Shown in pieces: positions 4,019 through 57,900 of a stretch of 64,000 nt of DNA; the first letter of the stretch is position 1, and each line of letters opens with the position of its first letter. Below the pieces are notes generated by a model, which worked only from the letters and a program-made list of their open reading frames with translations, searched no databases and was not told the origin of the DNA. This DNA comes from Mytilus trossulus (taxonomy: Eukaryota): contig NC_086374.1 in NCBI RefSeq assembly GCF_036588685.1, positions 48,112,001-48,176,000 on the forward strand, in the 5' to 3' direction. The position numbers were made by a program, and so were the translations under genes.

Positions 4019-5796
4019 AATACTTCCCGGTCTGTTGAAGATGTTTTAAAATTTGGACATATCAATGTAAGCGGTTGGACAAGTAACAATGAAGTGTTAC
4101 GAATCGCATTGCTCCAAAGTATTGGTGCTGATGTTGTTTAATAGCGTTAACGAAACATTGGTGCTGATGTTGTTTAATAGCGTTAACGAAACATTGGTGC
4201 TGATGTTGTTTAATAGCGTTAACGAAACATGGGTGCTGATGTTGTTTAATAGCGTTAACGAAACATTGGTGCTGATGTTGTTTAATAGCGTTAACGAAAC
4301 ATTGGTGCTGATGTTGTTTAATAGCGTTAACGAAACATTGGTGCTGATGTTGTTAAATAGCGTTAACGAAACATTGGTGCTGATGTTGTTTAATAGCGCT
4401 AAGGAAACATTGGTGCTGATGTTGTTTAATAGTGTTAACGAAACATTGGTGCTGATGTTGTTTAATAGTGTTAACGAAACATTGGTGCTGATGTTGTTTA
4501 ATAGCGTTAACGAAACATTGGTGCTGATGTTGTTTAATAGCGTTAACGAAACATTGGTGCTGATGTTGTTAAATAGCGTTAACGAAACATTGGTGCTGAT
4601 GTTGTTTAATAGCGCTAAGGAAACATTGGTGCTGATGTTGTTTAATAGTGTTAACGAAACATTGGTGCTGATGTTGTTTAATAGGGCTAAGGAAACATTG
4701 GTGCTGATGTTGTTTAATAGCGTTAACGAAACATTGGTGCTGATGTTGTTTAATAGTGTTAACGAAACATTGGTGCTGATGTTGTTTAATAGCGCTAACG
4801 AAACATTGGTGCTTATGTTGTTTAATAGCGTTAACGAAACATTGGTGCTGATGTTGTTTAATAGCGCTAACGAAACACACTTAAAGGAAAATGATAAGTT
4901 GGAATAACGAAATCAAGGATATGAATGGTTTGGTTTTAACAGACATTCTGTACATAGGAAGGCGCCAAAAGGTTCTGGAGGTGTTGGTTTTTTTGTTAAA
5001 TGTACAGTTTTAAACTTTTTTCACGTATGTGTGATTGACAAATCTATCGATGGTATATTGGGATTAGAACTTCGTCATAGACAAACAGACTTGTGTTTCG
5101 TTGTATTTTCCTCTTATCTGCCCCCTGAAAATTCACCATGGAGTAGAGACGCTGAAACTTTTTTTCTCATATTCTGGCTCAAATTTACTTGCATTGCGAT
5201 ATGGATGCCATCTTTTTATTAGGCGACTTTAACTCTCGAATTGGCCATTTGAATGACTTCAATTTTGAATTTGATAATATTTGTGAAAGGACCACTATAG
5301 ACTCTGTTTGCAATAAACACGGACAAGTATTGGTAGAGTTTCTAACTGACAGTAAATTCTGCGTTTTGAATAGTCGTATTGGTGAAAAATCAAATCAGTA
5401 CACGTCAATTTCATCAAGAGGCAAATCTGTTGTCGATTATATATGCGTTCCACATGATATCATTGGCAGTTGTAAAAACTTTAAGATTGTACCGTGTGGT
5501 GACGTTGTTGGTGCCGAAGGAATTCAAAATCTCATAGACACTCGATGTGAAATTCCTGATCACGCATTTTTAGTGTTTGACTATCATTATAGATACAATT
5601 TAAATTCAAATTCGGGTAACGGAAACAAAGTGGATATAAATAACGATGTGAAGACAGATCAGAACCGAAAACATTTCAAACTGTGTAGTATTCTTGCGGA
5701 TTTTATGTGTTCCGACATTATGAAACAAACGATAAATGAACTTATTAAAACAATCGAAATTTGTAGAGAAGAACAAGGCGAAATAGATAGTATATA
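4019..5796 (+). pseudogene. LINE ORF2 apurinic-like endonuclease domain (frameshifted)
   Basis: Translations KFGHINVSGW, SVNETHLK, GYEWFGFNR..KGSGGVGFFVK, YLPPENS, LLGDFNSRIG, GKSVVDYI and IPDHA lie across several frames. Confidence 0.9.
4122..4877 (+). repeat. Minisatellite, 21 x 36 bp (TTGGTGCTGATGTTGTTTAATAGCGTTAACGAAACA)
   Basis: Directly visible. The ORF track shows 21 LVLMLFNSVNET units. Variant pairs recur with a 216-bp period. Confidence 0.98.
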
Positions 5797-14871: not shown

Positions 14872-15933
14872 ATGGGTAGAAAAAGGATTTCAAAAGGATG
14901 GTGCTGCCAAAGAGACAGATGTGCCAGGCTATCCAGTGTAATACCAGGAACAGCAAGTTTCCAGTTTACTACAACCATGGAGAGGAACTTTGTCGAAATT
15001 GGACTGGAGGACCACCAAGTGAGATGTTTAGTTGACAGCGGAGCATCTTTTAGCTGTATCAGTCAACATCAGCTGTACCGTCTAAACACCACTACAGCGA
15101 TACAGAAATCAACGATAAATAGTGCAATAGGTGTCTGTGGAGAAGTGCATGCGATAATTGGTGAAATAGTACTACAGCTATCTTTTGGACAATACAAAAT
15201 TTACCAGAAATTCCGTATATTTGAAACACTACATGCAAAAGCTATATTAGGATTAGATTTTTTGAGAGACAATAAAGTGAAAACCGACTTTGAAAATATG
15301 ACTTTAACAATACCAACTCAGAAGAATTCCGCAATGAACATGGAACATCAAGATAGTGTTGCTCATGTTACCATAGCAACCTTTCAAGACAATAGTGCAG
15401 TTACAGCTTTGGCAGAAACCGTGAATTCAGTGATTTTAGAACCTCAATCAGAAACAATTATACCAGTTAAAATTCCAAAATTTCAAATAGGAAGTATAGT
15501 AATTTTAGAACCGTGCCATAAACTTCAGTCACGCTTTTCTATAGCTGGTGGAAAAACAGTTTCAAATATTGATAATAATAACATGGGAATTTACAGACTT
15601 TTAAATCCAACGAATCAAACTATCTATTTGGACTCGAAATTACAAATTGCTGTTGCACAACTAGTTGACTTCAGAAATATTAATGCTTTCAAAGACCAAG
15701 ATGAAGGATTTTTATTCAGTGTTTTAGAAAGTGAGAAATATTCAAACAATAACAGTGCTGATATTTTAGCTGATTTAGGGATTAATTTAAGTGATACTGA
15801 CTTAAGTTTAAATCAACAACAAAAACTTTATAAATTTTTAAGCCAGAATAGAGACATATTTGCCAAGGATTTATCGGAACTGAAATGCATTATCATACCA
15901 TCCATACAAAAGGTGATAAGGTGGTTAGTTTAG
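14872..15933 (+). CDS. Ty3/Gypsy aspartic protease region (5' part of pol; gag absent)
   Basis: LVDSGAS and AILGLDFL retropepsin motifs. Ends with L..QQQKLYKFLSQNRDIFA, the typical pre-RT segment, then frameshifts into the next ORF. Confidence 0.88.
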   Translation: MGRKRISKGWCCQRDRCARLSSVIPGTASFQFTTTMERNFVEIGLEDHQVRCLVDSGASFSCISQHQLYRLNTTTAIQKSTINSAIGVCGEVHAIIGEIVLQLSFGQYKIYQKFRIFETLHAKAILGLDFLRDNKVKTDFENMTLTIPTQKNSAMNMEHQDSVAHVTIATFQDNSAVTALAETVNSVILEPQSETIIPVKIPKFQIGSIVILEPCHKLQSRFSIAGGKTVSNIDNNNMGIYRLLNPTNQTIYLDSKLQIAVAQLVDFRNINAFKDQDEGFLFSVLESEKYSNNNSADILADLGINLSDTDLSLNQQQKLYKFLSQNRDIFAKDLSELKCIIIPSIQKVIRWLV

Positions 15934-18900
15934 CACCTTATCGTCAATCACCACAGATGCGTGCTGAGATTGAACGACAACTAGATGAGATGGAGAGACA
16001 TGGTATCATCGAAGAATCTACCTCTCCTTTTCACAGCCCTGTAGTTCTCGTGAAGAAACAAAATGGTGAATTTCGGTTTTGTGTGGACTTCCGTGTGCTC
16101 AACAAGATAACAGAGCCACTTTCATTTGGAATTCCACACATGTCTGACATTTTGGATACATTAGCTGATGCCAAACCTGAGCTATATTCAACTATCGACC
16201 TTCGTTCAGGATTCTGGCAGGTACCGTTAGACCCTGCCACAAAATACAAGAGTGCCTTCATTACCCACAAGGGAGTTTACGAGTTCAACAGACTAGCATT
16301 TGGTATGATGAATTCACCTATGACATTCCAGTGTTTAATGACCAAAGTGCTGAAAAATCTAAATTTTAAGATCGCGTTAGTCTACATAGATGATGTTTTA
16401 ATTTTTTCCAAGAACTTTGAGGAACATTTACAACATTTAAATTTAGTGTTTACCAATTTAAGAAGTGCTAATCTAAAATTACATCCGTCGAAATGTAAAT
16501 TTGCAAAGAAGGAAGTTAAGTATTTAGGACATGTTATTTCTAAAAATGGAATTAAAGTGAACCCAGAAAACACAGAAAAAGTGAACAATTTTCATACTCC
16601 TAAGAATGCCAAACAAGTGAAAAGTTTTTTAGGAATGGCGAACTATTACAGAAAATTTGTGAAGGACTATGCGTGTATTGCCACACCGTTAACATCACTT
16701 TTAAAGAAAAATATGAAATTTAACTGGACATTGAAATGTCAGAAGGCATTTGATACTCTGAAAAATGCACTTATTTCCGCACCTATTCTAGTGTTTCCAG
16801 AATTTGATAAACCATTCATATTATCCACAGATGCATCTGAATATTCAATGGGATATGTGTTAAGTCAGATTCAGAATGGAGTGGAGCATTCCATTGCTTA
16901 TGGTGGAAGATCTCTTCGTGGTTCTGAACTTAGATGGCATATTACAGAAAAGGAAGCACTAGCTCTAGTGGATGGAATACAGCACTTCAAACATTATTTG
17001 GCAAATCAAGAATTCACTGTGTATACCGACAATGTATCTGTTAAGTATCTGCAGAAAATCAAAGACTGTCAAGGTCGTCTAGGAAGATGGAGTTTGCTAC
17101 TTCAGGGATACAACTTCAAGATTATACACCGTGAAGGCTCTAAGAATACTGCCGATTGTCTATCCAGGCAACAGTACACAAATTCAACAGCACAAGATTC
17201 AACCGATTTGGCAGAACATTTGTACAATATTAATGAAAAAGAGTATACTGAAACTGTGTTTTTTTATAAAGGAGAAAGTGAGGAAAATGTAATCGCGAAC
17301 ATACAAGAAACTGAAATTCAAGAACCGGAACTTATGAATTTATCCAAACATCAAAAAGAGTGTCGAGACTTTTCCGAAATTTACAATTATAAGTTTAATA
17401 GAGAATTACCAGATGATGCAATTTTAGCGAGAACAATAGTAGCGGAATCATACAATTTTGAAATAGAGGATGGAATTTTAAAACATTTTTATTCAAAGAG
17501 GTGTAAACAAGTACCAAGACATGAGCGTTTAGTGAAACAGATAGCTGTTCCTAGAATTTTACGTGACGACGTTTTGAGGTCTTACCATGACTGTATTCTA
17601 GGCGGTGGTCATCAAGGTTTCGACAGAACATACTCATCACTGCGTAATAAGTACTTTTGGCCTTCAATGTATGAGGATATTAAACAATATGTTAAGACAT
17701 GTGAAGTGTGTCAACAATCGAAAAGGAATTATGGTGCTAAACGACCACCTCTTAAACCACAAATAAGTGATGACATATTTAGTAGATGGCATATGGACAT
17801 ACTTAGTGGTCTACCTACAACTCCAGACAAATACAAACATGTACTTTTAGTGGTGGACAGCTATTCTAAGTGGAGTGAAATATTCCCTTTAAAAACACAA
17901 GAAGCTGGTGAGGTAGCAGGAATACTGTACAGGGAGATTATCTCACGATACGGAGCACCTAGAGTTCTCATATCAGACCGCGGCAGGAATTTTACGTCGA
18001 ACCTTGTAAAAGCATTATCTGAAATGTTTCAGATTACAAGACATTTAACGAGCTCCTATCATCCGCAAACAAATGGATCTGTTGAAAGAATGAACTCCGT
18101 TATTCTCCAATCTATTCGCAGTTATGCTAAAGATCAGCAAGATGACTGGGTTCATCTATTACCAGGAATCATGATGGCATACCGAGCCACTCCAGCAACT
18201 CAGTCAACTGATTTCTCACCATTTTTCTTGTTGTTTGGACGAGAGATGTGTCTGCCGATTGATACTTCTCTCATACCTAAGGAACATTTAGCCCAAGATC
18301 ATAGGATATTTTTAGGAAGAATTCTGCAAAATTTAGAAAGAACCAGGAAAATTGCATCAGAGAACATAGAAGTAGCCCAAGAGAGAAATAAACGCCAATA
18401 CGACAAGAATACACAGGAACCAGAATTTAGACCTACCCAAAGAGTTTGGCTATACTGTACTAAAGTTCCTGTAGGAAAGGCTCCAAAATTGCATCGTAAA
18501 TGGGTAGGTCCATATTATATAACTCTTGTGAACAGATCAAACCACACTTATAGAATCAGAAATTGTGCGAACAACAAAGAAGTGAAGTCACTAGTAACTG
18601 CGCATAGGTTGAAGCCGTACTATGACCCTAACACTAGACCAACTAATCCGCCTCCAGAATATGAAAATGATGACGATGAGTTAGATCCAGACGAAATAGG
18701 TCGACAAGATAACAACAACAGACAACAACAAAATCGAAGACAGCCAAATGGAGACAACAATGACAGACAACAACAGAACAGGGGACAGCAAAATGGAGAC
18801 AACAATGACAGACAACAACAGAACAGGGGACAGCAAAATGACAACAACAATGATAGACAACAACCAAACACAGACCAGAGAATTGGTAACAACAACCAGA

Positions 18901-19703
18901 ACCAACCACGCAATCTGCCTGTTGGCAACACAAAACCATCGTGTCAAGATTGTAAACGTGGAAATTGTACTCCATTTAGTGAAGAAAACATTGACCGTCT
19001 AATGGCTTCAAATCGAGGTAATGGTACACTATATTACAAAATAAAATTCAAAACAGGACAAACCGAGTGGCATTTTCCATGTAAAATTCCAACAAATATA
19101 GTGCGTCAATTTCATGCAGACAGAACAATGAGCGGGAAAAAGAGAAAAAGACCTCTAAATCAAACCAAGCATAAATTCTTTAATAAATCTGACAAACCAG
19201 GAAATGAAGAAAATAAGGAAACTAGTACCAATTCGCAAAAGGAATCTGTAAATGTGCTTTCAACCAATAACAACCCTTCTTTGGATTATTCACAACCTGA
19301 AAAATTACTAGCAGTGCGTTTAATAAATAAAAAGGCTTATTATCTGATTCAATCTGGAATTATTCAGAGGTGGCATTCAATTACATCTGTTCGAAACCAT
19401 GCTCATAATTTTATCAAATACTTTACAACAATCTTTGAGGAGAGATTGCTGAAAGAGAAATTGAACTATCTTCAGGAAAAACACCAAGGAACACTGAAAC
19501 AGGAATTTAGTAGCTGTGGTCAAGGATTTAAAGTACATGAAGCAAGAGTTGACAATAGTGGAAAAATGGAGTTTTTGTTAAGTTGGATGAACCCAAATAT
19601 GCCTCCAGAATGGCAGACTTTTGATGAAGTGCCGAATGGGTGCATTGACACTTTCTTAAAAGAATTAACTAAAGAGTTCCAAAGTGAGATAAATCCATGG
19701 TGA
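15885..19703 (+). CDS. pol: Ty3/Gypsy pol: RT, RNase H, integrase, Q/N-rich linker and chromo-like C-terminal modules
   Basis: RT: FCVDFR, IDLRSGFWQ, AFGMMNSP, YIDD, YLGH. RNase H: TDAS, EKEALA, YTDN. Integrase: HHCC zinc finger, D-SDRG-VER, GPY module. Confidence 0.97.
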   Translation: MHYHTIHTKGDKVVSLAPYRQSPQMRAEIERQLDEMERHGIIEESTSPFHSPVVLVKKQNGEFRFCVDFRVLNKITEPLSFGIPHMSDILDTLADAKPELYSTIDLRSGFWQVPLDPATKYKSAFITHKGVYEFNRLAFGMMNSPMTFQCLMTKVLKNLNFKIALVYIDDVLIFSKNFEEHLQHLNLVFTNLRSANLKLHPSKCKFAKKEVKYLGHVISKNGIKVNPENTEKVNNFHTPKNAKQVKSFLGMANYYRKFVKDYACIATPLTSLLKKNMKFNWTLKCQKAFDTLKNALISAPILVFPEFDKPFILSTDASEYSMGYVLSQIQNGVEHSIAYGGRSLRGSELRWHITEKEALALVDGIQHFKHYLANQEFTVYTDNVSVKYLQKIKDCQGRLGRWSLLLQGYNFKIIHREGSKNTADCLSRQQYTNSTAQDSTDLAEHLYNINEKEYTETVFFYKGESEENVIANIQETEIQEPELMNLSKHQKECRDFSEIYNYKFNRELPDDAILARTIVAESYNFEIEDGILKHFYSKRCKQVPRHERLVKQIAVPRILRDDVLRSYHDCILGGGHQGFDRTYSSLRNKYFWPSMYEDIKQYVKTCEVCQQSKRNYGAKRPPLKPQISDDIFSRWHMDILSGLPTTPDKYKHVLLVVDSYSKWSEIFPLKTQEAGEVAGILYREIISRYGAPRVLISDRGRNFTSNLVKALSEMFQITRHLTSSYHPQTNGSVERMNSVILQSIRSYAKDQQDDWVHLLPGIMMAYRATPATQSTDFSPFFLLFGREMCLPIDTSLIPKEHLAQDHRIFLGRILQNLERTRKIASENIEVAQERNKRQYDKNTQEPEFRPTQRVWLYCTKVPVGKAPKLHRKWVGPYYITLVNRSNHTYRIRNCANNKEVKSLVTAHRLKPYYDPNTRPTNPPPEYENDDDELDPDEIGRQDNNNRQQQNRRQPNGDNNDRQQQNRGQQNGDNNDRQQQNRGQQNDNNNDRQQPNTDQRIGNNNQNQPRNLPVGNTKPSCQDCKRGNCTPFSEENIDRLMASNRGNGTLYYKIKFKTGQTEWHFPCKIPTNIVRQFHADRTMSGKKRKRPLNQTKHKFFNKSDKPGNEENKETSTNSQKESVNVLSTNNNPSLDYSQPEKLLAVRLINKKAYYLIQSGIIQRWHSITSVRNHAHNFIKYFTTIFEERLLKEKLNYLQEKHQGTLKQEFSSCGQGFKVHEARVDNSGKMEFLLSWMNPNMPPEWQTFDEVPNGCIDTFLKELTKEFQSEINPW
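18715..18870 (+). repeat. In-frame 45-bp minisatellite in pol (QQQNRGQQNGDNNDR x ~3.5)
   Basis: Visible in both DNA and translation. Confidence 0.9.
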
Positions 19704-26684: not shown

Positions 26685-27464
26685 TTGGACCCTCCCCCCC
26701 CCCCCCCCCCTTTTTTACCCTAGGTTGGGAACCCCAGTCTTAATGCTTATCCACAAGTCCTACAGCATTGATTGTAAAATTGCTCTCAGGCTTGTAAAAT
26801 TCTTCTCTACAAGCCAACAAAGTCCAACCAGACATATAATACAACATTGTATTATACTGTTCATTGTTTCTAATCCAACTAAAATTTTCAAAAAAATAAG
26901 TCTCTGGCTTCAAAACGCAAAAGTTAAGCGTAACGGCTGGAACCCCTTTTTAAAAATGTCTTAATTTGTCCCTAAGTGTTCTAATAGTAATAGTAGTCAA
27001 AAGAAATACGTTTCACATTCTTATTTATAAGTTGCAACATGTCGGTCATGGACATTTGTCATTTACATGTAACGTTAGGGCCTATAAATCACTTTTAAAC
27101 TAAAATTTAATTCCTTTTTTTAGTCGGTATTTAATGTTTAAAACTTACAAAAAAATAAGGAACATACTGTATACCATTTCACAGCATTATAATGTTCTAT
27201 ATCACCTATTATTTTAAAATTAAGACTCAGCAAATGGTTAGCGGTCAATATTTCCAGGGAAAGTTAGAGAAAACGGATGTTGACAACATGTGTATTTCCA
27301 GAGACAAGGACGGATACAATCCGAATTTAATTTTTCGCCATAAAATTGTTACCTAAAATAATATATTTATATCTAAATTTAATGTTTACAAACATACTAA
27401 ACAAAACGTAAAAAATATTTTTTGCAAACTGTGCAAACAGTACTTCAAAAAATAATGTTGGATA

Positions 27465-27670
27465 TGTAGTATTCGTAGGGTTAGTTTTAGGTCATCAGAC
27501 AGACCATCGAGAGATGTCCGAAGAACTACCCAGAAAGCATCCTCTTCCGGTTGAAACTACTAATGGCTACAGACGCTAATATTCACTAGAAGAGCAATCG
27601 GCCGTTCCTGACTGCAGGAACGACCATCCAAGGTATTTATCGGTCTCGAGATATACTCGGGGTCACAACA
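27465..27670 (+). repeat. LTR-C 5'
   Basis: TGTAGTATTC...GTCACAACA, identical to 31814-32019. Confidence 0.97.
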
Positions 27671-28193
27671 TTGGCGCTGCGAGCAATTAGCGGACAGTGT
27701 AATTGCTTGAAGTGATATTTTTTTATGTTTTTGCCGTTCAGGTTGCGAACGGCAAAAAATAGTAAGGCAGGAGGGGGAAAGGTGATTTGGTTTATTCCAG
27801 CGCGGGAATAAGTCATTTCAGGCACTCGTGGAGTATTTTGGAGGAATACTTCACGGTTGTTTAGGAGAAAGGATTGTGCAAGTAGACGTCAGGTTACCTT
27901 GCTGATCCTGGAGGGACAGCTGGGTAGCAGTCGACAAGTTATTGTTTTGTTTAGGTTACCAGTCGTGTTGTTATTGTTTTGTTTACCTCTGATAACTGCA
28001 GACCAGAAGGACGGGTTACCAGTCGTATTGTTATTATTTTGTTTACTCCGATAACCGCAGACCAGAAGGACGGGTTACCCGAAGCAGAAGTATTTGTGTT
28101 AGTCAATATATAAATTGTGGTTTAAGTGTGTTGTTTATTCTTTAAATAAATAAACTTTGTTATAAATTGTTGTTCAGTGATTTACAAAAACAA

Positions 28194-30272
28194 ATGTCAG
28201 TTGTAAACCTAAACACTTGTAGCTTTCAAGAGTTACTCCAGCTCCCAGGTATAGGCATACAAACTGGGGAGCAAATAATGGACATTAGGGAGAGCAAGGG
28301 CTATATGACCGAGTCAGACTTGGATACGATCTCCCAACTTCGAGTAACAAGGGGTCTCTTATCAAGGCTGGACTTCAGACCAAATGAAGGTGGCCCAAAT
28401 ATTCGGCCACCACCTCAGTCCCAAGTCAGGCATGGTGAGATGTTAAACATGGCACACATTGCCCCACAGGGCACTTCATCCCAAGTACAAGGCCAATCTG
28501 CATTTAGGCAAGAAGCATGGCCCCAGGGGCAAAGTCCCGGGCCCTTGGAAGGGCCCAGCCAGAGGGACTCTACCTTCCTTGAATATAGTCCATATCCTGG
28601 GGATGCTAATGCTAGACCTGAACCCACAGGGAATTGGGATGAGGGCTACAGGGAACCGTTACAGAAAAAAAAGTGGAGTCCCCATGATATTGGTGACCCA
28701 AACAAAGGTAGTCCCCCTCACCACATGTACAGGGGTAGTATTGGGAACAAGCCTGATTGGCCAGGTAAAAACAGTGTGTGGGACAAACGTACCCCAAACT
28801 ATTGGGGCACACCTTCACAACCCATGGGTCACGCATGCAACTATGCAGGTCAGGGGTCAGCACCCTGTACCCAACCAGCTTACACTGGTGGGGGACAGTA
28901 TGAGATGGCCTGTAGTAAGTATGGCAAGAGACAAGACAATAGGGGTGCAGACACAAGGCAGACCCCATCTCATGAGTATGGGGATAGGCAACCCAATAAC
29001 AAGTATAATCAAGGATATACAGCGGTGCCCCCACAAGGGGTCACCGCAGGGGTGAGCTATGGACAACAGGCCTACCCAGTACCATATAATGAGGACAGGC
29101 CTATAAAAAACCCAAGGGCACCTGACAACAGAGATGGGGCACACGGAACTTTAGGTGGCGTCTCTAGAGTTACCAGTGCCCCAAAAAATATTAAGTATGA
29201 CGGAAAGGGTAACTGGCAGGCCTTTTTCACAAAATTTGCTAGATACGCAGAGGTTTGTGAATGGGGTCCCCAGGAATGTAAAGACCAACTTTGCTGGTGC
29301 CTTGAGGGGAAGGCCAGCGAATATTATGCCCTCATAACGGAAAGGGACAGGGAGGTAAGTTATAGGGAGCTTGTGGAAAAGCTTCACAAGCGCTTTGGTT
29401 TCAAGGCACTCCCCGAGACCGCCGGGTTCAGTTTAACAATGCTCTGCAAGCCCCTGAGGAGTCTCTTGAGGACTGGGCTGATCGGGTGTTATCCTTGGCC
29501 ACCAGGGCATTTAGAAACCTCCCTGATGACTATATGTATGAGCAAGCCGTAATGCGGCTGTGCCAGGGTATTGAAAACAAACAGTTGGGAGTGCAAGTCT
29601 CTAACCTTCAGCCCCAAAGTATTGAGGAGGCCGTAGATAAAATACGGCTGTTCCAACACAACACACAGGCAATATATGGCAAGCCAAACAGGCGTGAGGT
29701 TAGGCAAGTAACTGATGGGCAGTATGAAGCCCACCATGAGGCCTTCCACGAGTATCAGGGGCCCCATGTAAGGGATACAATGGCCATCGAGGGGGCCCCA
29801 TGTAAGGGATACAATGGCCATCGAGGGGGCCCCAGCCAGTACATGGAAAGTGGAGTTAGAAAAGTCTAATAAGAAGTTTGAAAACAAACTTAGTCAAGTC
29901 AACGAAAAATTAGACGACATGATGGACCAATTCAAGCAACTCCTTACAAGCCCCATTGCAGGAAGTTGTTCACCTGGCAGACAGTCAGGGACAGAAAGTT
30001 GCCACCACTGTGGGGAGAGGGGCCATTCCAAAATGGAATGCCCAAACTTAAGAGGTAAGTCCGTCTCAGGGAGTCCCTCCACTGATAGAGGGCCTCCATT
30101 GGAGGGAGTGTGCTACCACGGTTTAAAGCCTGGACATGTTAGGAAGGACTGTCTTTATTTACAGGGGAGGGATAAAACTGTTTCCTTTATAAATCAGTCA
30201 AGCAGAACTGCAACAGTACCATTAAACTTAAACGGGACTACTCAGGAGGCCAGAGTGAGTCCCTGCAAATGA
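28194..30272 (+). pseudogene. gag: Gag with N-terminal helix-hairpin-helix domain, capsid-like domain and two zinc knuckles (two frameshifts)
   Basis: HhH: VNLNTCSFQELLQLPGIG. Gag core: KYDGKGNWQAF..W...CLEGKA and ESLEDWADRVLSLATRAF. Knuckles: CHHCGERGHSKMEC and degenerate CYHGLKPGHVRKDC. Frameshifts at ~29425 and from a 34-bp duplication at 29761-29830. Confidence 0.88.
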
Positions 30273-31582
30273 AGTTAGGCCTCTCGGTAGTTGAGTCTGT
30301 ACCCCAAGGCAGAGTAGTGGAGGTAGCTATAGGGAGCCCAGGGGTATGTGCAAGGGACAGAGAGGGAAACAGAGAACCCCGTGTGTCGGTACAGGTTAAA
30401 GCAGAGATTGAGTCAGAGCAGTGCTCCGATTCTGACAAAGAGGCAACTCCTGCAGGCGGCTTGGACTGCTACTTATTAAGATGTCTCACGAACATATTGA
30501 GGCATTGTGCACCAGAGTTTAACCACAGCTTTCTTCCAGGTGGGTATTTGTTGGTTGAGGAAATCCTTAAAAGGGACCCAGGCTTTGCGAAGTACTCCTT
30601 ACTTGATATTCATCAACTGATTAAGGTTGATGTGGACAGTAGGTTCACTTTAATAAAGGACACAGACAGTGACTGTTGGAAAATAAGGGTCAACCAGGGG
30701 TATTCCTTGATGGTGGATATCCCAGCTACACCATCAGTAGAGAAATACGAGGTGCCCCAAGGCAATTTAGTTGCTCCAGCATTGCTCACATCGGACCAAG
30801 AGGGTTCAGTGGCCAATATAATTAGAAAACCCATAGGAGCTGCTATTTTGGCCATTGAGAATAATAGTGACATTCAAAAGGTTGCTGTCCCAACAGAGAC
30901 AACGTTGGTAAGTGATGCGGAGGCCCAAGAAAGTTGGGACTCCACCTCCGACGGTGAGGCTCCTACCACTTTGGTAGAAGGGGCCAGTAATGAGAAGATA
31001 GTCACAGTTTTCCCTACTCCTGTTGTTGACGGAGGAATGACTGACAATACTGAAAACAGTCCTACATCCCTCACTTTTGATGACCCTTCCTCAACAGGAG
31101 GAACTGACAGAAAAGTCGCAACAGAAAGCAACAGTTGGCTCAACAATGAAAAAGTTATAACTTTCAAATCATCTGTCAACCAGGAATCTGTATACATTAA
31201 TCCAGAAAGCCCTGATTCAGGATTAGGGCTACTTTTTAAAACAGATAATGTTGGCACTAGGTATTTCAATCTGCAGCAGCCACCACCAGTAGACAGTGGG
31301 ACATCAGCCTTTTGTGTGAGCACAGTTAGATCGGGTCCCAACAGAAGACAATGGGATCCTGGAATTCCCTACCCAAACAAAGGTATAAATTCATTGCAAG
31401 TGAGGAAAAATGAAACAAGACTCTTCACGACGGAGAATGGATCAGCACAACCTCCTGGGTCCAACTATGTAGTGGACACGCAGCTTCTAAATGGCCTGTT
31501 TCTAGTTGGTATAAAGATGGTGAAAAGTTGGCATACGGTCCAGACTAGAACAATTCACAGTTTTCTGGGTTCCCAATTTTAG
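30269..31582 (+). CDS. ORF2 with Tpt1/KptA (TRPT1, RNA 2'-phosphotransferase) N-terminal RNA-lobe domain (30464-30718) plus a low-complexity S/T/E tail
   Basis: LLRCLTNILRHCA..PGGYLLVEEIL..FAKYSLLDIHQLI..DSRFTL..KIRVNQGYSLMV matches the Tpt1 pattern LS..LRH..DG(F/W)V....L....RF....IRANQGHS..V. No HGT NAD-lobe motif. The frame is open from 30176 and is -1 relative to gag. Confidence 0.8.
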   Translation: MKLGLSVVESVPQGRVVEVAIGSPGVCARDREGNREPRVSVQVKAEIESEQCSDSDKEATPAGGLDCYLLRCLTNILRHCAPEFNHSFLPGGYLLVEEILKRDPGFAKYSLLDIHQLIKVDVDSRFTLIKDTDSDCWKIRVNQGYSLMVDIPATPSVEKYEVPQGNLVAPALLTSDQEGSVANIIRKPIGAAILAIENNSDIQKVAVPTETTLVSDAEAQESWDSTSDGEAPTTLVEGASNEKIVTVFPTPVVDGGMTDNTENSPTSLTFDDPSSTGGTDRKVATESNSWLNNEKVITFKSSVNQESVYINPESPDSGLGLLFKTDNVGTRYFNLQQPPPVDSGTSAFCVSTVRSGPNRRQWDPGIPYPNKGINSLQVRKNETRLFTTENGSAQPPGSNYVVDTQLLNGLFLVGIKMVKSWHTVQTRTIHSFLGSQF

Positions 31583-31813
31583 GGAACCCATTGTACTAAA
31601 TTTTAGTTAATCAGTAGACCCATGGATACAAAGGGTCGTTTTGGGGGATAGGTTTTATACTTTTTAAAAATTGTTAGGGGGATAGGATGTATACTTTAAA
31701 ATCGATGCTTATTTTTTCAAAATTTGGTATTATTTCAGTATTTTATTGATTTTGGGCGAAAAACACAGGGCCCCCATCATTAGAGGGGGCCTTATTAATA
31801 AAACTGGGGGGAG

Positions 31814-32019
31814 TGTAGTATTCGTAGGGTTAGTTTTAGGTCATCAGACAGACCATCGAGAGATGTCCGAAGAACTACCCAGAAAGCATCCTCTTCCGGT
31901 TGAAACTACTAATGGCTACAGACGCTAATATTCACTAGAAGAGCAATCGGCCGTTCCTGACTGCAGGAACGACCATCCAAGGTATTTATCGGTCTCGAGA
32001 TATACTCGGGGTCACAACA
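31814..32019 (+). repeat. LTR-C 3'
   Basis: Identical to the 5' LTR and followed by TSD GATA. Confidence 0.97.
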
Positions 32020-32289
32020 GATAGATTGGTGAATAAAACATACAAAAATAAATATTGGTGAACTCGGCTAAATTGGCAAACTTCAGTAAGTTGGCAAATA
32101 TTACAGATACACATTGCATCTATGCATGGCAAGCATTAATGTTTTCCTGAATGTTTGCAACCAAGCGAACAGTATTAGTTTGTAAATGTTTGCGAATAGT
32201 AATGACTACATAAATACTGGCAATGATAGCGACGCTGGCGATATTTGAATGAATTTGTAAATGTTAGCGAACAGTATTAAGTTTCGTAA

Positions 32290-33100
32290 ATGTTGGCGAC
32301 ATTGACGAACAGTTATGAGTTCATAAATGTTGGCGATGTTGGCAAACAGTAATGTTTCATAAATGTTGGCGACGTTGGCGAACAGTACAGTTTGTAAATG
32401 TTGGCAACGTTGGCGACGTTGGTGAACAGTGATGTTTCATAAATGTTGGCGATGTTGGGGACGTTGGCGAACAGTTATGAGTTTGTAAATGTTGGCGCAT
32501 TGGAGAACTGTAATGTTTCATAAATGTTGGCGACGTTGGCGAACAGTATTGAGTTCATAAATGTTGGCGACGTTGGCTAACAGTATTGAGTTCATCAATG
32601 TTGGCAACGTTGGCGACGTTGGCGAACAGTATTGAGTTCATAAATGTTGGCGATGTTGGCGACGTTGGCGAACAGTATTGAGTTCATAAATGTTGGCGAC
32701 GTTGGCAAACAGTATTGAGTTCATAAATGTTGGCGACGTTGGCGAACAGTATTGAGTTCATAAATGTTGGCGACGTTGGCGAACAGTATTGAGTTCATAA
32801 ATGTTGGTGACGTTGGCGAACAGTATTGAGTTCATAAATGTTGGCGACGTTGGCGAACAGTATTGAGTTCATAAATGTTGGCGACGTTGGCGAACAGTAT
32901 TGAGTTCATAAATGTTGGCGACGTTGGCGACGTTGGCGAACAGTATTGAGTTCATAAATGTTGGCGACGTTGGCGACGTTGGCGAACAGTATTGAGTTCA
33001 TAAATGTTGGCGACGTTGGCGAACAGTATTGAGTTCATAAATGTTGGCGACGTTGGCGAATAGTAAGGATTTCGTAAATGTTGGCGACGTTGGCGACATT
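32290..33100 (-). repeat. Right subterminal tandem array (37/46-bp units)
   Basis: Unit AAATGTTGGCGACGTTGGCGAACAGTATTGAGTTCAT. Its core is the reverse complement of the left array core. Confidence 0.95.
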
Positions 33101-33132
33101 TGCGAACATTTACACAATCCTGTACCAGAATG

Positions 33133-51900: not shown

Positions 51901-54900
51901 GATGAAAATCAGTAAAGAAATGAGGTCAAAGTATTTTAACTTACAAAACATTTCAAACAGTCTTAAGATTTGCACAAGCATATGCAACTTATTGTAGGTT
52001 AGTTAAGAGTAACAGTTCATATTAAATACATGTTAACCTCTAACCATAAAATCTCTATTATGGCGTAACTTTAAGGCAGATCATACTAAACAAAATCTTG
52101 AAATTTGGACACAGTCAATTTTCATATCTCTAAATATATGCAAAGAAAAATATATCTTCATATCTTACTTTTTTGAAATATTTTTAAATTGGTATGGTTA
52201 AAATCAAAACACAATTTTAAGTTTAAATTTTTTTTCAAAAGAAGAGACTAGATCAGCAAGATTTGATCTACAAGTAGAGAGGCTGAAATCATCAGTCAAC
52301 TCCTGATATAAGTTATTGCCTTGATTGATGATTTTATACAATTATTTGTATTTTTGCCTTTAATCTTTTATCTTGAAAACTGAAATAAAGAATAAATTAT
52401 ACAAGATAACCTTACAGTAATATATCAAAAGAAATGGGGATAATTGTGCTATTGCAGAAGGGGTAGTTGAGTGATAAGGGGGTTTGAATGAGAAAGACTT
52501 AAATTAAATTAGAAGATGTGGTATGAGTGCCAAAATGATACCTCTCCATCCAATTCACAATGTATAAACAATGACAAGATGATCAAAGAACAGCCTCTAA
52601 CACAGAACCTTGGTAATGGTCAGCAAGCTTTAAAGGGCTCCAAAATGACTTGTGTAAAACAATTAAAACAGGAAAACAAATGTTGTAATCTATATAAAAA
52701 ATGAGAATCCTATGAACCAAATCAACAAATGACAATCACTTAACAACAGACTTCTGACATAGGACAGGTGCATAAAAATGCAGTACACTTGGTCATTTTT
52801 GTCTCACTTGACGGAGTCAAAAAAGCGAGACATAGGTATGCTGTTTCCAGCAGCAGCGTCAACAATGAATTAGTTTGTGATTAGGTCTATTTTATGGTGA
52901 GCCACTAGTGGTAGGTCAATGATATTTGGTATGCAGTTGTATAAGCATTGGCATATCTTATTTTCATGGAGATTATTTGGCCCTGCCCCCTCTGTCATGG
53001 TCTATTGACTTTGAAATTTTGCTTAGTTTACATGTACATGTATTAGTTTGTGATTAGGTTTGTTTAAAGAAAACTATTTATGATAAGTCAATGGTATGAG
53101 TATGCAGTTGTATTAGCATTAGCACATCTTGTTTTCATTGAGAATTTTTAGCCATGTACCTTCAGTCATGGTTCATCGACTTCTTTAATTTTAACATTTG
53201 CATTATCGAAATTAAAAAAAAGCGAGACATATCTCTGTGATAACAGTTTATGATATATATATCTGCTGTAATTGTACATAAATTTTTACATATGAAAACC
53301 TGGTAAAATCGTTCATTGACTTCTTTAATTTCAACATATGCATTACCGAAATTAAAAAAAGCGAGACATATGTCTGTGATAACAGTTTATGATATATATC
53401 TGCTATAATTGTACATAAATTTTTACATATGAAAACCTGGTAAAATAAACCCTCTATTTGCATGTAGGCAATATAGGAAAGGTGTACTGACAAAAGAGGT
53501 TTCTTAACACAATGACTCCAAATGGAGCTTTCCTTAGTAGAAGCCATATCAATTTATGTGTATCAGCGGGGGAAAATGTTACGATTCCCTCCCTCTATTT
53601 ACATGTACTTACAGTAGATTCATACATGTGTTTGTTTGTTGCAGGTGAAGACGAACCAACAAATGGAGAAAGCAACAATGGACCAGTTGGAAAGGATGCT
53701 GTAGAAGACAACAATGCAAATATTGTAGTAACAGAGGAGGAGGAGAAGGATGAAACATCCAAAGAAGAGAGTGGGGAGGAAAATAATGCTGAAAACTCAG
53801 ATGATATCATCCCCTTACAACTAGAAGCTGAAGATGTTGATGATTACTCAAACTTGAAATGTGATGAAACTGATGATAGAAATACTTATGACACCGATTC
53901 TAACCACTCCTATGATCAAGGTGGTGGAGACTCTGAAGTTGGACAGTCAGAGGAACATAATTTCCATACTCCATCATCATCTGACCGCATGTGTGATTTC
54001 TGTGGAGCTGTAAAGAAAAGTCCATCTGACCTTGCTCGCCATCTCCTAAAACATACTGGCGAACATCCTTTTAAATGTGATGTAAGTACTAGGGTAGCCT
54101 TTAGTTATAGTTTTGCAGCTAAAGGGGAATAATTATATTTTAGATTTTTATGACCAGTGACAAATGAATTTTGATTGTTACACACTTTTTCAGCACAAGA
54201 TGGTTTATCAATGTTTCTAAGTAGGGACATTTATACAATTGTGGCAAGGACTAACTATGAAATGGAAAATTAAGAAAATTAAATGAAAGGTTCAAACATC
54301 AATTAAACAGGAACAAAGTACCCAAAGTCGAACATGAAATTCTGCTTGACTTAGTCTAACTCATTGCATTTAAAGCATTTACACATACAAAAAATCCATG
54401 GCATTGACATTCTGAAAAATAGGAAGCAGTAGTTTAAAATAACAATGAAAGGTGCATTGGTGTGTCTAAGATATCTTTGGATAGGAATCATAATTTGTCA
54501 ATTCATTTGTTTCCCTGTAGGCTGTATGCATGATTATCGAGCTATTTGATGACTTTTCAATGTAATATATTTATTTTTAACATTTTTTAATGTATTTATT
54601 TTCAGCTTTGTGATAAAGCTTTTAAATCTAAACGATCCTTACAGCATCACCAACATACAATGCATGGGATCAGCCTAGCTGTTTCCATGGTAGCAATTGA
54701 TGCCAGTATCACCGCCAACAGAAAACGTAAATCTGATGAATCAGTGGGATGCCATTCTTCCCCAGAGAGTGAAACTAAAAAGATCAAATCAGAAGTTCAG
54801 GATTTATACAGTTATCCATCTATGGTCTATTGTGGAGAACCTCAGGGATCTGTTTACATTTCGGACGCATCATGTAGCAGTACTGGTAGCTTTAAGATCA

Positions 54901-57900
54901 GCCCAACATCAACAAAACTGTGCTCAGAAGATGGCAACAACAGAACTTGCCAAGTATGTGGAAAGACGTGCAGTAAACCAAGTGATCTTAAAAGACATAT
55001 GATGAGTCATACAGGAGAAAGACCATTCAGATGTAATGTAAGTTTAAAGATTTAATGGTATGCATATTCAAACTGTCAGTTGAGACAGTCATAAGATAAA
55101 TTATATAGCTGCACTTTTTGTACATTAATATATAAATGAAATGAAATGAGTAAGCTGTTCAGTTAAGAATAATGTAGATTTCTGCTAAATTTTGCTACCT
55201 TGCATTCTTCTATAAGCAAGTCAGATCACTAGATCTACATGTGAATGTAACATTTTTATACTGGGGATTCATTATTATTTGTTGGATACTAATTTTCGTG
55301 GATTTCATTGGCGCTGATGAACCACAAAAAATTAGTATTCAACGAATTACAATTTTTCTAAAAGGTAAATGCATATGCAGATCATGGCAAAATCACAAAA
55401 TTAAATATTCACAAACATGCAAGTTTTTCTCAATCCATGAAAGTGAATCCACATGTAACAGGACCTGTCCAAAAAATGTCAGTTAGACAGAAAGCTTTTA
55501 ATTTGAATTGAATTCAGGTCAAATAGCTTTTGGAAAACGTTTGACAAGATATTTAATGTGATCCTCAACTAATTTTGTATAATTAAGACATTATATGTAT
55601 GGTATGATTACCAGTGAGTTGACTTTTTTGTTTGGTATCGTTGGCTTTATATACCAACAAGAGACTCAATATATACATGTACTAAATCTATTCAACATTG
55701 ATTAAATTGGAATCCCAACAAAATAAAAAAAATAAAACTGATAATGAGCATTTTGAGTAAGTGGTAGCATTCAGTATATGGTTATTAATAAATAAATGTT
55801 CTTATATTTAAGTTAACTAAGATAATTCACTATTCTGAAGATACGTATTCTCTTATCGCTATATGAACTTCAACAGAAAGCAACTCAGGTATCAATGTTC
55901 GTATATCATATTTTTCAGATTTGTGGCAAAGCTTTTCGAGCCAAAAATAGTATGTTTTACCACCAAAAATCATCACATGGCCTCAATATTGAACTAAGTC
56001 CCGGACTGCAGGAGCGTTTCATGAAATTAAAAAAGCAAAGTCGTGTGAATACTTTGATGAGCCAGCCAAATGGATGTTCCATATCATATACAAATGAAGA
56101 ATCTAAAGATGTCCATATCCACAATGATCCACAGATGGCAAGTTCTCTACTGTTACAAAAACTAGGACAAAAAGTCAGATGTGCTAACAATCAAGTGCTG
56201 TATAGTTATGATATCAATACACATGAGGAAGGGGAGGTGGAATTGGATGAAAACACCGGACTCTTCAAACAGTCGGGAAGCATCTTTAACAAACCACTAG
56301 TAACAGCAGGAGATATAAAACCAGAACCTTTAAAAATTACCAATAGTATGGTGGGCATGCAAATTGTACAGGAATCACACAAAGTCAAGCGCCACATCTG
56401 TGTTAAAAATGAAACTGTTTTGGTGACCAGGTTAGATGGGGTGGATGTACTTACTGCAAAAGATGTCTCTTTGTATAAATGTTACCTGTGTGGCAAGCTT
56501 TTTGATGATCTGCTGAAAATTCAGTGCCATCTATCGATGCATTTTCAAAGGGATCTAACTCTGTATCGTTGTCAGCTATGTGATGACACATTTTGGTTCA
56601 AGTATCGGGTCATAAATCATATCCGTAAGAATCACCCTAAAGAATCAAACCTGGCATTAAAAAAAGCTGAAAAAGATTTAAAGGAATCATTAGATGATAA
56701 ACCATCAGTAGATGTCAATGAAATTGAAGTTACAGTTAAAGAGGAAAATGACAAGAAAAAGAAAGAGAATTCATTGATGGAAGGTGATGAAAAAGTGAAA
56801 GTCGATGAAATGGAAACTGAAAAAGATTCAAAGCAGACTGAAGAGATTGGGAAAAACCAAGAGCCCATCAAAGACCCTGAAAAAGGGAAAAGAGAAGAGC
56901 AGCAAAATGACCAAATGGAAGAAACTACCTCAATCAAAATTGAAGAAAATCCAGTTAAAGAAAAAGAAGGGGATGAAGACGTTACATCTACCTCAGACAA
57001 AGATATTACCAAAGATGTCCCTGTTCCTGACCTCTATGACTTGTCCAATAAAGCTATGAAGTCTGATCCACTAGGAAAGTTATACAAAGGAATAAGATTT
57101 AAAAAGAAACCTAATGGATCTTTCATATGTTTACTTTGTAGGAAATCATTTTACAGGGAGTCGGCTTTACTGCAGCATATCAAAATTCACAATCAACAAC
57201 ACATCTGCTACTGTGAGCAATGTGGTGATGGCTTTATGGAGTATGGAAAATTAAGGTTGCACATCATGGGAGATCATAAGAAAAATGATGATGATGATGA
57301 TACAGCACTGCCATCAGCTACAGCAAAGAATACTTTACTCTCTTCTTTGTTATCAAAAACCTCACAATGGCACAAACCTCCAACTCCTAGTATTCCAGTA
57401 CCAAATGATATGATTTTTGAGAAAGCCAGAGAAATTCTGCAAAAAGAAGGAATACAGGAAGATGTAACAGTTGTGTTACCAAGTGAACCAGATGAACAGA
57501 ATTCTACAGAGACAAGGAAGGCTAACTTAGACAATATTCTATCAAACCAAGAATCTGAGATATTTGTACAGAAGAACTCTGATGAATCTGAAATCCAGAT
57601 ATCCCCAAAACGTCTTTTGATGTCCAAACTACTCTCAAAATCAAAAAGAAAATCATCACAACCTATAAAATTAGAAAATACTGACCCTATGGATTGTGAA
57701 AATGTTGTGGTTACCAGATCTGACTCAGAGAGAGAGATATTTACCATAAAACAAGAACCTGTTGTAGATGAAAAAGAGTTGCTTCCCCCTCCAGTCTCAA
57801 TTCCAGTTCCAATATCTACTTCTTCCTTTCCTGTCATCAACAGTGAACTGATGGCAGCCAAACTCAATAATCTAGCAATGTTGCATCCTGGGATACATCC

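Follow-up and report, generated by a model that had tools for sequence, protein, structure and literature searches.

The ComEA domain (PF12836; PDB 8dss, 8dfk, 2duy) is a four-helix domain with a double helix-hairpin-helix (HhH). In passages of the ComEA literature it is described as lacking a connector helix, and its residue K166 as needed for DNA binding (PMC9747964). Two (HhH)2 domains are found in tandem on each nuclease-fold subunit of EEPD1 (PDB 9yi2 sequence), where they are flexibly tethered and, according to sections of the EEPD1 report, bind dsDNA only when multimerised, via avidity (PMC12988330). Among LTR retrotransposons, the mollusc Ty3/Gypsy elements have been divided into MolGy clades on the basis of RT/RNaseH trees, and the part of that work drawn on here describes no accessory domains (PMC6238403). 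Captured DNA- or chromatin-binding domains proposed to steer integration are known from CopiaMBD, whose MBD reads methyl-CpG, and from chromoviruses, which carry a chromodomain on the integrase; PHD fingers in retrotransposons are likewise already known in general (passages of PMC6673714). In retroviruses, MLV p12, the Gag part upstream of the capsid (CA), tethers capsid-containing complexes to chromatin, and a chromatin-binding sequence is also present in foamy-virus Gag; both are described as short peptides that bind nucleosomal histones (PMC6021111). In the Ty3 capsid the N-terminal part of CA is directed outwards, with NC and the genome inside (section of PMC6525542). Short LTR elements that kept gag and miss RT and integrase have been described from plants as TR-GAG (PMC4350172).

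The window analysed here is a 64,000-nucleotide stretch of the Mytilus trossulus genome (NC_086374.1, positions 48,112,001 to 48,176,000), which contains an LTR element with an HhH domain at the N-terminus of its Gag. The clade to which it belongs resembles the MolGy elements in its PR-RT-RH-IN order, TG...CA LTRs, tRNA primer site, 4-bp target-site duplication and PNMA/Arc-type capsid, and differs from them, as far as the consulted description goes, by the HhH-Gag, a TatD ORF3, an integrase PHD finger in one subclade and sporadic Tpt1. It may be one of the named MolGy clades, with which it was compared by description only. CopiaMBD belongs to another superfamily and captured another domain, and in the present clade a PHD finger takes the position of the chromodomain of chromoviruses while the HhH sits on Gag. 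The Gag-encoded tethers of capsid-bound cDNA in MLV and foamy viruses resemble the working model presented below; they are not folded DNA-binding domains, and there is no homology. The window element shares the reduced layout of TR-GAG, but has an animal host, an extra ORF2 with half a Tpt1, and an HhH on Gag.

Structure of the window element

The element (27465-32019) is an ordinary broken copy of a 4.55-kb young, non-autonomous, helper-dependent Ty3/Gypsy-type LTR element, with the following features:

27461..27464 (second copy 32020-32023), strand not applicable: target-site duplication GATA, 4 bp
27465..27670, + strand: 5' LTR, 206 bp, TG...CA, 0 mismatches against the 3' LTR
27672..27685, + strand: primer-binding site for host tRNA-Ser (CGA/TGA), pairing with its 3' end
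28194..28376, + strand: Gag residues 1-61, ComEA-type four-helix double HhH (Pfam, structural models, alignment)
28377..29200, + strand: linker of ~270 residues, Pro/Gly/Gln-rich, predicted disordered (helper Gag model, pLDDT under 50)
29200..29700, + strand: PNMA/Arc/Ty3-like capsid region (CA); in the window copy the frame breaks near 29420
29758..29825, + strand: 34-bp tandem duplication, second gag frame break, not in sister copy L031
29997..30047, + strand: CCHC zinc knuckle, nucleocapsid region, under the Pfam cut-off in the window copy
30269..31582, + strand: ORF2, N-terminal (RNA-binding) half of Tpt1/KptA, then unstructured sequence (Pfam match)
31799..31813, + strand: polypurine tract
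31814..32019, + strand: 3' LTR, identical to the 5' LTR

The LTRs, primer-binding site, polypurine tract and target-site duplication of a Ty3/Gypsy LTR retrotransposon are thus all present, and the absence of LTR mismatches marks a very young insertion. Protease, RT, RNase H and integrase were not found in the window element, and the PR-RT-RH-IN order is seen in the Pol of the helper family (L036). The window ORF itself gives no Gag match because its frame is broken in this copy. Open-frame sister copies match Retrotrans_gag and PNMA, the helper Gag as modelled by AlphaFold matches the PNMA2, dArc and Ty3 capsids, and a Ty3/Arc/PNMA-type capsid with CCHC knuckles is present in a sister copy and in the helper. 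An open gag is kept by five sister copies that share the type of the window element (L031-L035) and by three that belong to a second type (L061-L063); gag is not open in a further sister copy, L066. The closest named homologues are Mytilus proteins. ORF2 covers positions 8-86 of the 177 positions of the Tpt1 Pfam profile.

At 14872-19703 the window holds another Gypsy element, unrelated to this one, which has PR, RT, RH and IN and no HhH; it is not the helper. A tandem array of 37- and 46-bp units (32250-33130) adjoins the 3' LTR downstream and is followed by decayed non-LTR (LINE-like) RT fragments, and exons of a host C2H2 zinc-finger gene occupy 53512-58429. A search of the genome with the tRNA-Ser pattern gave 391 matches, the first 100 of which all fall within one tandem array (L137, G000:C8:7773964 onward), where tRNA-Ser(CGA) alternates with tRNA-Ser(TGA) with a period of ~739 bp.

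The HhH domain of Gag

A first-pass annotation of this locus had placed a ComEA/HHH_3-type fold at 28194..28380. Translation of the open reading frame 28194-29552 gives the Gag start quoted there; position 28194 is the first ATG downstream of 27725, and homologues begin at the same Met. Pfam HHH_3 matches Gag residues 3-39 with 35.5 bits (E 1.1e-8, 69-aa query) against a cut-off of 27 bits, a score that falls to 30.8 bits with the whole 452-aa ORF as query, and Pfam HHH is also matched by the N-terminal segment (26.5 bits with the 69-aa query, cut-off 24 bits). All 20 rows of the family match HHH_3 at E<=0.001. A profile made from the seven sister-subclade domains alone scored the window segment at 33.3 bits, compared to a maximum of 6.0 among 1000 shuffled segments, of which 868 received a score. 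A chance match is ruled out by the Pfam score together with this shuffle control. Bacterial contamination is ruled out as well, since the domain lies within LTR elements that occur on many large contigs.

Structure prediction agrees with the profile matches. AlphaFold models residues 1-61 as a compact four-helix domain, with pLDDT 90-96 in the helper Gag model and a mean of 81 when modelled alone; the predicted models show a double HhH without connector helix, as in ComEA. The best structural alignment is with Geobacillus ComEA (Z 10.1, rmsd 1.9 A, 62 of 63 residues), followed by Tex (Z 8.4) and Thermus ComEA (Z 8.3), with the next unrelated structure at 5.7. Foldseek also ranked ComEA first, but with an E of 0.016, and a search of the ESM Atlas gave zero matches at 0.9 or above. 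Spt6, TEFM, PsbU and GspK are among the structural matches too. Tex, Spt6 and TEFM are transcription- or RNA-associated proteins; PsbU and GspK, which have the same fold, are not known to have a nucleic-acid role. Gag residues 1-61 thus form a real, conserved ComEA-type HhH domain, with essentially the extent given in the first-pass annotation.

The likeness to ComEA has limits. The first hairpin is a canonical GhG (LPGIG, residues 17-21), and its glycines are retained in 70/90 and 78/91 rows. The second hairpin is degenerate: it has zero glycines in the rows of the window's subclade, and a single one in 2/7 rows of the sister subclade. N7, L14, I28 and R32 are invariant in 20/20 rows, and a DF motif is conserved at the domain terminus alongside the core residues. 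The position of the DNA-contacting lysine of ComEA (K166 in Gs, K164 in Bs) is occupied by Thr24 in the window Gag and by Thr, Leu or Ile across the window's PHD-bearing subclade, while it is Lys or Arg in 65/70 proteins of the PHD-less sister subclade. The PHD finger and the basic K166-equivalent are complementary in their occurrence, yet this amounts to one evolutionary event, and the pattern may be taken only as a lead. The net charge is ~ -2 in the window's subclade (median -1 over 72 domains). The NCBIfam ComEA cut-offs are not reached (22 vs 53.1 bits and 27.5 vs 152 bits) and the domain is fused to Gag, unlike the ComEA protein family, whose members are secreted or membrane-anchored competence proteins. 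Sequence-independent DNA binding by the Gag HhH is a putative property.

Among full-length sequence matches to the family profile, EEPD1 ranks first (E 2e-17); it shares the flexible tethering, although each Gag has one domain only. The Gag profile also recognises an EEPD1-like exon of the host (L141), at 39.5 bits; host EEPD1 and a bacterial gene are not distinguishable as the source of the HhH on 60 residues.

Substitution rates were estimated from single pairs by the Nei-Gojobori method. Between the window's family and the helper (L031 vs L036) the HhH has a dN of 0.082 and a dS of 0.84, compared to 0.218 and 0.55 for the linker and 0.012 and 0.27 for CA. The HhH domain is under purifying selection.

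Helper family and recombinants

A domain search of the mussel's own genome gave 77 matches among 121 candidates, and 40 of these were examined as 10-kb stretches. These revealed the helper whose existence had been surmised: an autonomous family of ~11.5 kb (L036-L040, L064, L065), with a capsid segment 96-98% identical to that of the window element and a Gag that is also HhH-tipped. Its Pol of 1819 aa holds a full Tpt1, PR, RT, RH, IN and PHD, and its ORF3 ends in a TatD nuclease domain. The ORF2 of the window element, with just the RNA-binding half of Tpt1, is 44% identical to the helper's.

In one copy, L061 (L061:5075-9696), the LTRs and the 3' half share 95-100% identity with the family of the window element, but the segment that starts at the primer site, includes the HhH and extends into CA is 97-100% identical to the helper at the DNA level. 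It is a clean recombinant with the helper 5' UTR and gag 5' half placed between LTRs of the non-autonomous family. Co-packaging with template switching would give such a pattern. Alignment with the window element gives the same picture for L062 and L063 as for L061, so that there are at least three recombinant copies. The helper gag head in L061 shows that the HhH-Gag heads of the helper and the non-autonomous family are interchangeable. The added modules had been suggested to help the element compete for a helper's pol. Since the non-autonomous family has, through recombination, acquired the 5' half of HhH-Gag from the helper itself, the domain gives it no special edge over the helper.

Other non-autonomous HhH elements occur in the genome: gag-protease families of 6.2-6.5 kb (L050, L053-L055, L060) and a 4.5-kb gag-only copy (L052), all with near-identical LTRs and without Tpt1.

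Distribution of HhH-Gag

For the wider survey, RT similarity was the sole criterion for choosing 32 further loci, and another 8 were chosen for their similarity to Tpt1. The RT tree comprises 47 rows, with loci of short or no RT left out (L042, L046, L123-L130, L132). One branch, with 99/95 support, holds 35 rows, 30 of which have the HhH. Three of the five exceptions (L117, L119, L131) miss the 5' part of gag, and the other two (L097/L134) represent a family whose Gag starts differently. Among the in-clade loci picked by RT alone that retain the capsid region, 15/18 have the HhH. None of the 12 outgroup rows, which include the other Gypsy element of the window, has it, in line with the first-pass view that the domain is foreign to canonical Gypsy Gag. 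Counting close copies once, as grouped by us on the RT tree, gives 13 groups in the clade: 12 have HhH, 11 TatD, 6 PHD and 2 Tpt1, where TatD was sought only within ~4.5 kb downstream of the RT in RT-picked loci. The module was therefore not added by the window element itself, as had been proposed, because the helper and 11 other RT groups of the same genome have an HhH-Gag. The domain marks one Gypsy RT clade, to which it is ancestral and in which it is inherited clade-wide.

Outside this genome, the HhH was found in 94 of the 150 top-ranking representatives (50% identity), a count biased upward by a search profile that itself included the HhH, and in 94/114 of those with at least 100 residues before CA. 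In 87/94 of these proteins its start falls within the first 30 residues, and the distance to CA is 67-657 residues. Among the homologues of the Gag of the sister subclade, 70/109 have it. The named hosts of HhH-Gag (Mytilus, Dreissena, Mercenaria, Pinctada, Crassostrea, Saccostrea and Ostrea) are all bivalves, where an organism name was obtained for 3/30 of the representative clusters looked up. The RT clade also includes sequences from Lingula, Gigantopelta and Elysia, known from RT and not from Gag. Two of three in-clade Gag-Pol fusions with a full capsid are without HhH (P0145, P0152). Clade members such as these and L097/L134 show that the domain is dispensable.

Several of these proteins carry misleading names. 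The Mytilus Gags P0393 and P0403 are mislabelled 'comEA' in NCBI/UniRef, where P0393, P0403, P0004 and P0022 are mussel retrotransposon proteins labelled comEA, TPT1 or tatD, and the clade Pols P0039, P0181, P0185 and P0193 are filed under bacterial MAG names.

Tpt1, TatD and PHD modules

A link between HhH and Tpt1, as had been assumed, is rejected: the HhH occurs without Tpt1 in 10/12 HhH groups, and a full Tpt1 is present in the HhH-less L123-L125 (at about 4200-4800), located after the protease. L123 and L124 are derivatives of the L107 family, which has no HhH; in both, Tpt1 replaces RT-IN. Elsewhere Tpt1 is found before the protease (L036:3391-3909, L041:2905-3410) or close to the C-terminus of Pol (P0085, residues 1065-1236 of 1379). 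Full-length Tpt1/TRPT1 at three positions in related Gypsy elements suggests repeated capture.

An ORF3 with a TatD nuclease is present in 11/13 clade groups and in 0/12 outside (for example L071:639-3158, L075:345-2432, L045:7544-9184 and L097-L104), and two groups keep ORF3 without TatD. HhH and TatD occur together in 10/12 HhH groups; two HhH groups have no TatD, and one TatD group has no HhH. Alignment with solved TatD enzymes showed that the catalytic motifs are kept. The PHD finger lies at the integrase C-terminus (L036:8286-8440 and five other groups), and all PHD groups fall in one subclade with 100/99 support. It is also present in most Pol homologues found by homology search.

The first-pass annotation had called for a survey of HhH-Gag and Tpt1, and had considered that HhH-Gag might be routine in an already described Gypsy clade, independently of Tpt1. 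HhH-Gag is indeed routine for one clade and independent of Tpt1, but no prior description of the clade architecture was found. The literature searched gave no account of HhH-Gag, TatD ORF3 or Tpt1 in LTR retrotransposons; Repbase, GyDB and subscription journals lay outside its scope, and a prior description there is possible. Term searches found helix-hairpin-helix not mentioned in PMC8321522, PMC10294476 and PMC13524379, and PHD and TatD not mentioned in PMC13524379. The clade-level layout, with its HhH-Gag, TatD and Tpt1 additions, appears not to have been described previously.

Proposed role of the HhH domain

It is proposed that the HhH is a low-affinity, multivalent DNA/chromatin tether on the capsid surface, with a probability of roughly 0.4. 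The Gag N-terminus would lie outside the capsid, as in Ty3, and the linker (70-650 residues) would let many HhH copies per particle reach DNA, so that with this topology and linker length the HhH would decorate the particle surface in many copies. Avidity would offset the weakness of the single domain. Ahead of integration, the tether would keep the capsid-bound cDNA attached to DNA or chromatin of the host, and in one subclade the integrase PHD finger may add histone reading. In the window element the HhH would act as part of a helper-type Gag that co-assembles with helper Gag-Pol. The Ty3 topology, the avidity of EEPD1 and the MLV p12 precedent make a tether the favoured reading. The basic residue at the K166-equivalent of the sister subclade argues for it, as do the ComEA-type fold, the purifying selection with its invariant residues, the N-terminal position and the EEPD1 sequence match. 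The window subclade, without a K166-type lysine and second-hairpin glycines and with its net negative charge, argues against it, and so do the PsbU and GspK matches and the clade members that have no HhH.

It is somewhat unlikely that the HhH instead acts on nucleic acid of the element itself during packaging or reverse transcription, binding genomic RNA, the tRNA-Ser primer, an RNA:DNA hybrid or cDNA and aiding the zinc knuckles. Tex as second-best structural match, with Spt6 and TEFM also matching, would fit such a role, as would the gathering of nucleic-acid end-processing enzymes (TatD, Tpt1) in the clade and a linker long enough to pass through capsid gaps. However, the CCHC knuckles are still present, and in the section of the Ty3 work cited above the N-terminus faces away from the genome (PMC6525542).

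In another reading, the HhH was kept as a protein-interaction module, either for oligomerisation of Gag or for contact with a host partner, and its DNA binding weakened or disappeared in the PHD-bearing subclade. The missing K166-equivalent and second-hairpin glycines, alongside strong conservation of core residues and the terminal DF motif, would fit this. XPF-ERCC1 dimers are mediated by (HhH)2 domains according to parts of PMC12988330. This explanation is unlikely in view of the basic residue retained in the sister subclade and of the first-hairpin glycines, the usual backbone contact, which most rows keep.

The co-occurrence of HhH with TatD, absent from the outgroup elements, and the intact TatD catalytic motifs are what would be expected if the HhH coated cytoplasmic cDNA against host DNA sensors while the TatD nuclease cleared by-products. 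This is quite improbable: the co-occurrence is a single ancestral event, and the groups with only one of the two domains speak against it. Joint addition of HhH and Tpt1 by the non-autonomous element, to hold cDNA or compete for the helper's Pol, would suit the presence of both domains in the window element and of a helper in the genome, but is highly implausible, as the helper has both domains, with Tpt1 complete, each domain occurs without the other in the groups given above, and L061-L063 carry the helper's own HhH (at the DNA identity given for L061).

Significance

Few parts of LTR retrotransposons are as poorly understood as the Gag regions upstream of the capsid. Here a folded domain of a type found in DNA repair and uptake proteins is conserved over ~90 sequence clusters; small and soluble, it offers a testable way into the question of how particles that have no envelope reach chromatin. 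The combination of HhH-Gag, TatD ORF3, PHD-integrase and recurrent Tpt1 can serve to recognise a large bivalve lineage with recent activity, and this architecture explains the false 'comEA', 'TPT1' and 'tatD' gene names in mussel annotations. More tentatively, and as a possible though doubtful wider picture, these elements would represent an ancient animal Gypsy lineage with a DNA-handling kit (an HhH capsid tether, a TatD third ORF, an integrase PHD reader and Tpt1 captured at three positions), in which the HhH shell may give the particle a new means of docking on chromatin or of shielding cDNA, and in which the PHD-gaining subclade may have relaxed the HhH DNA contact.
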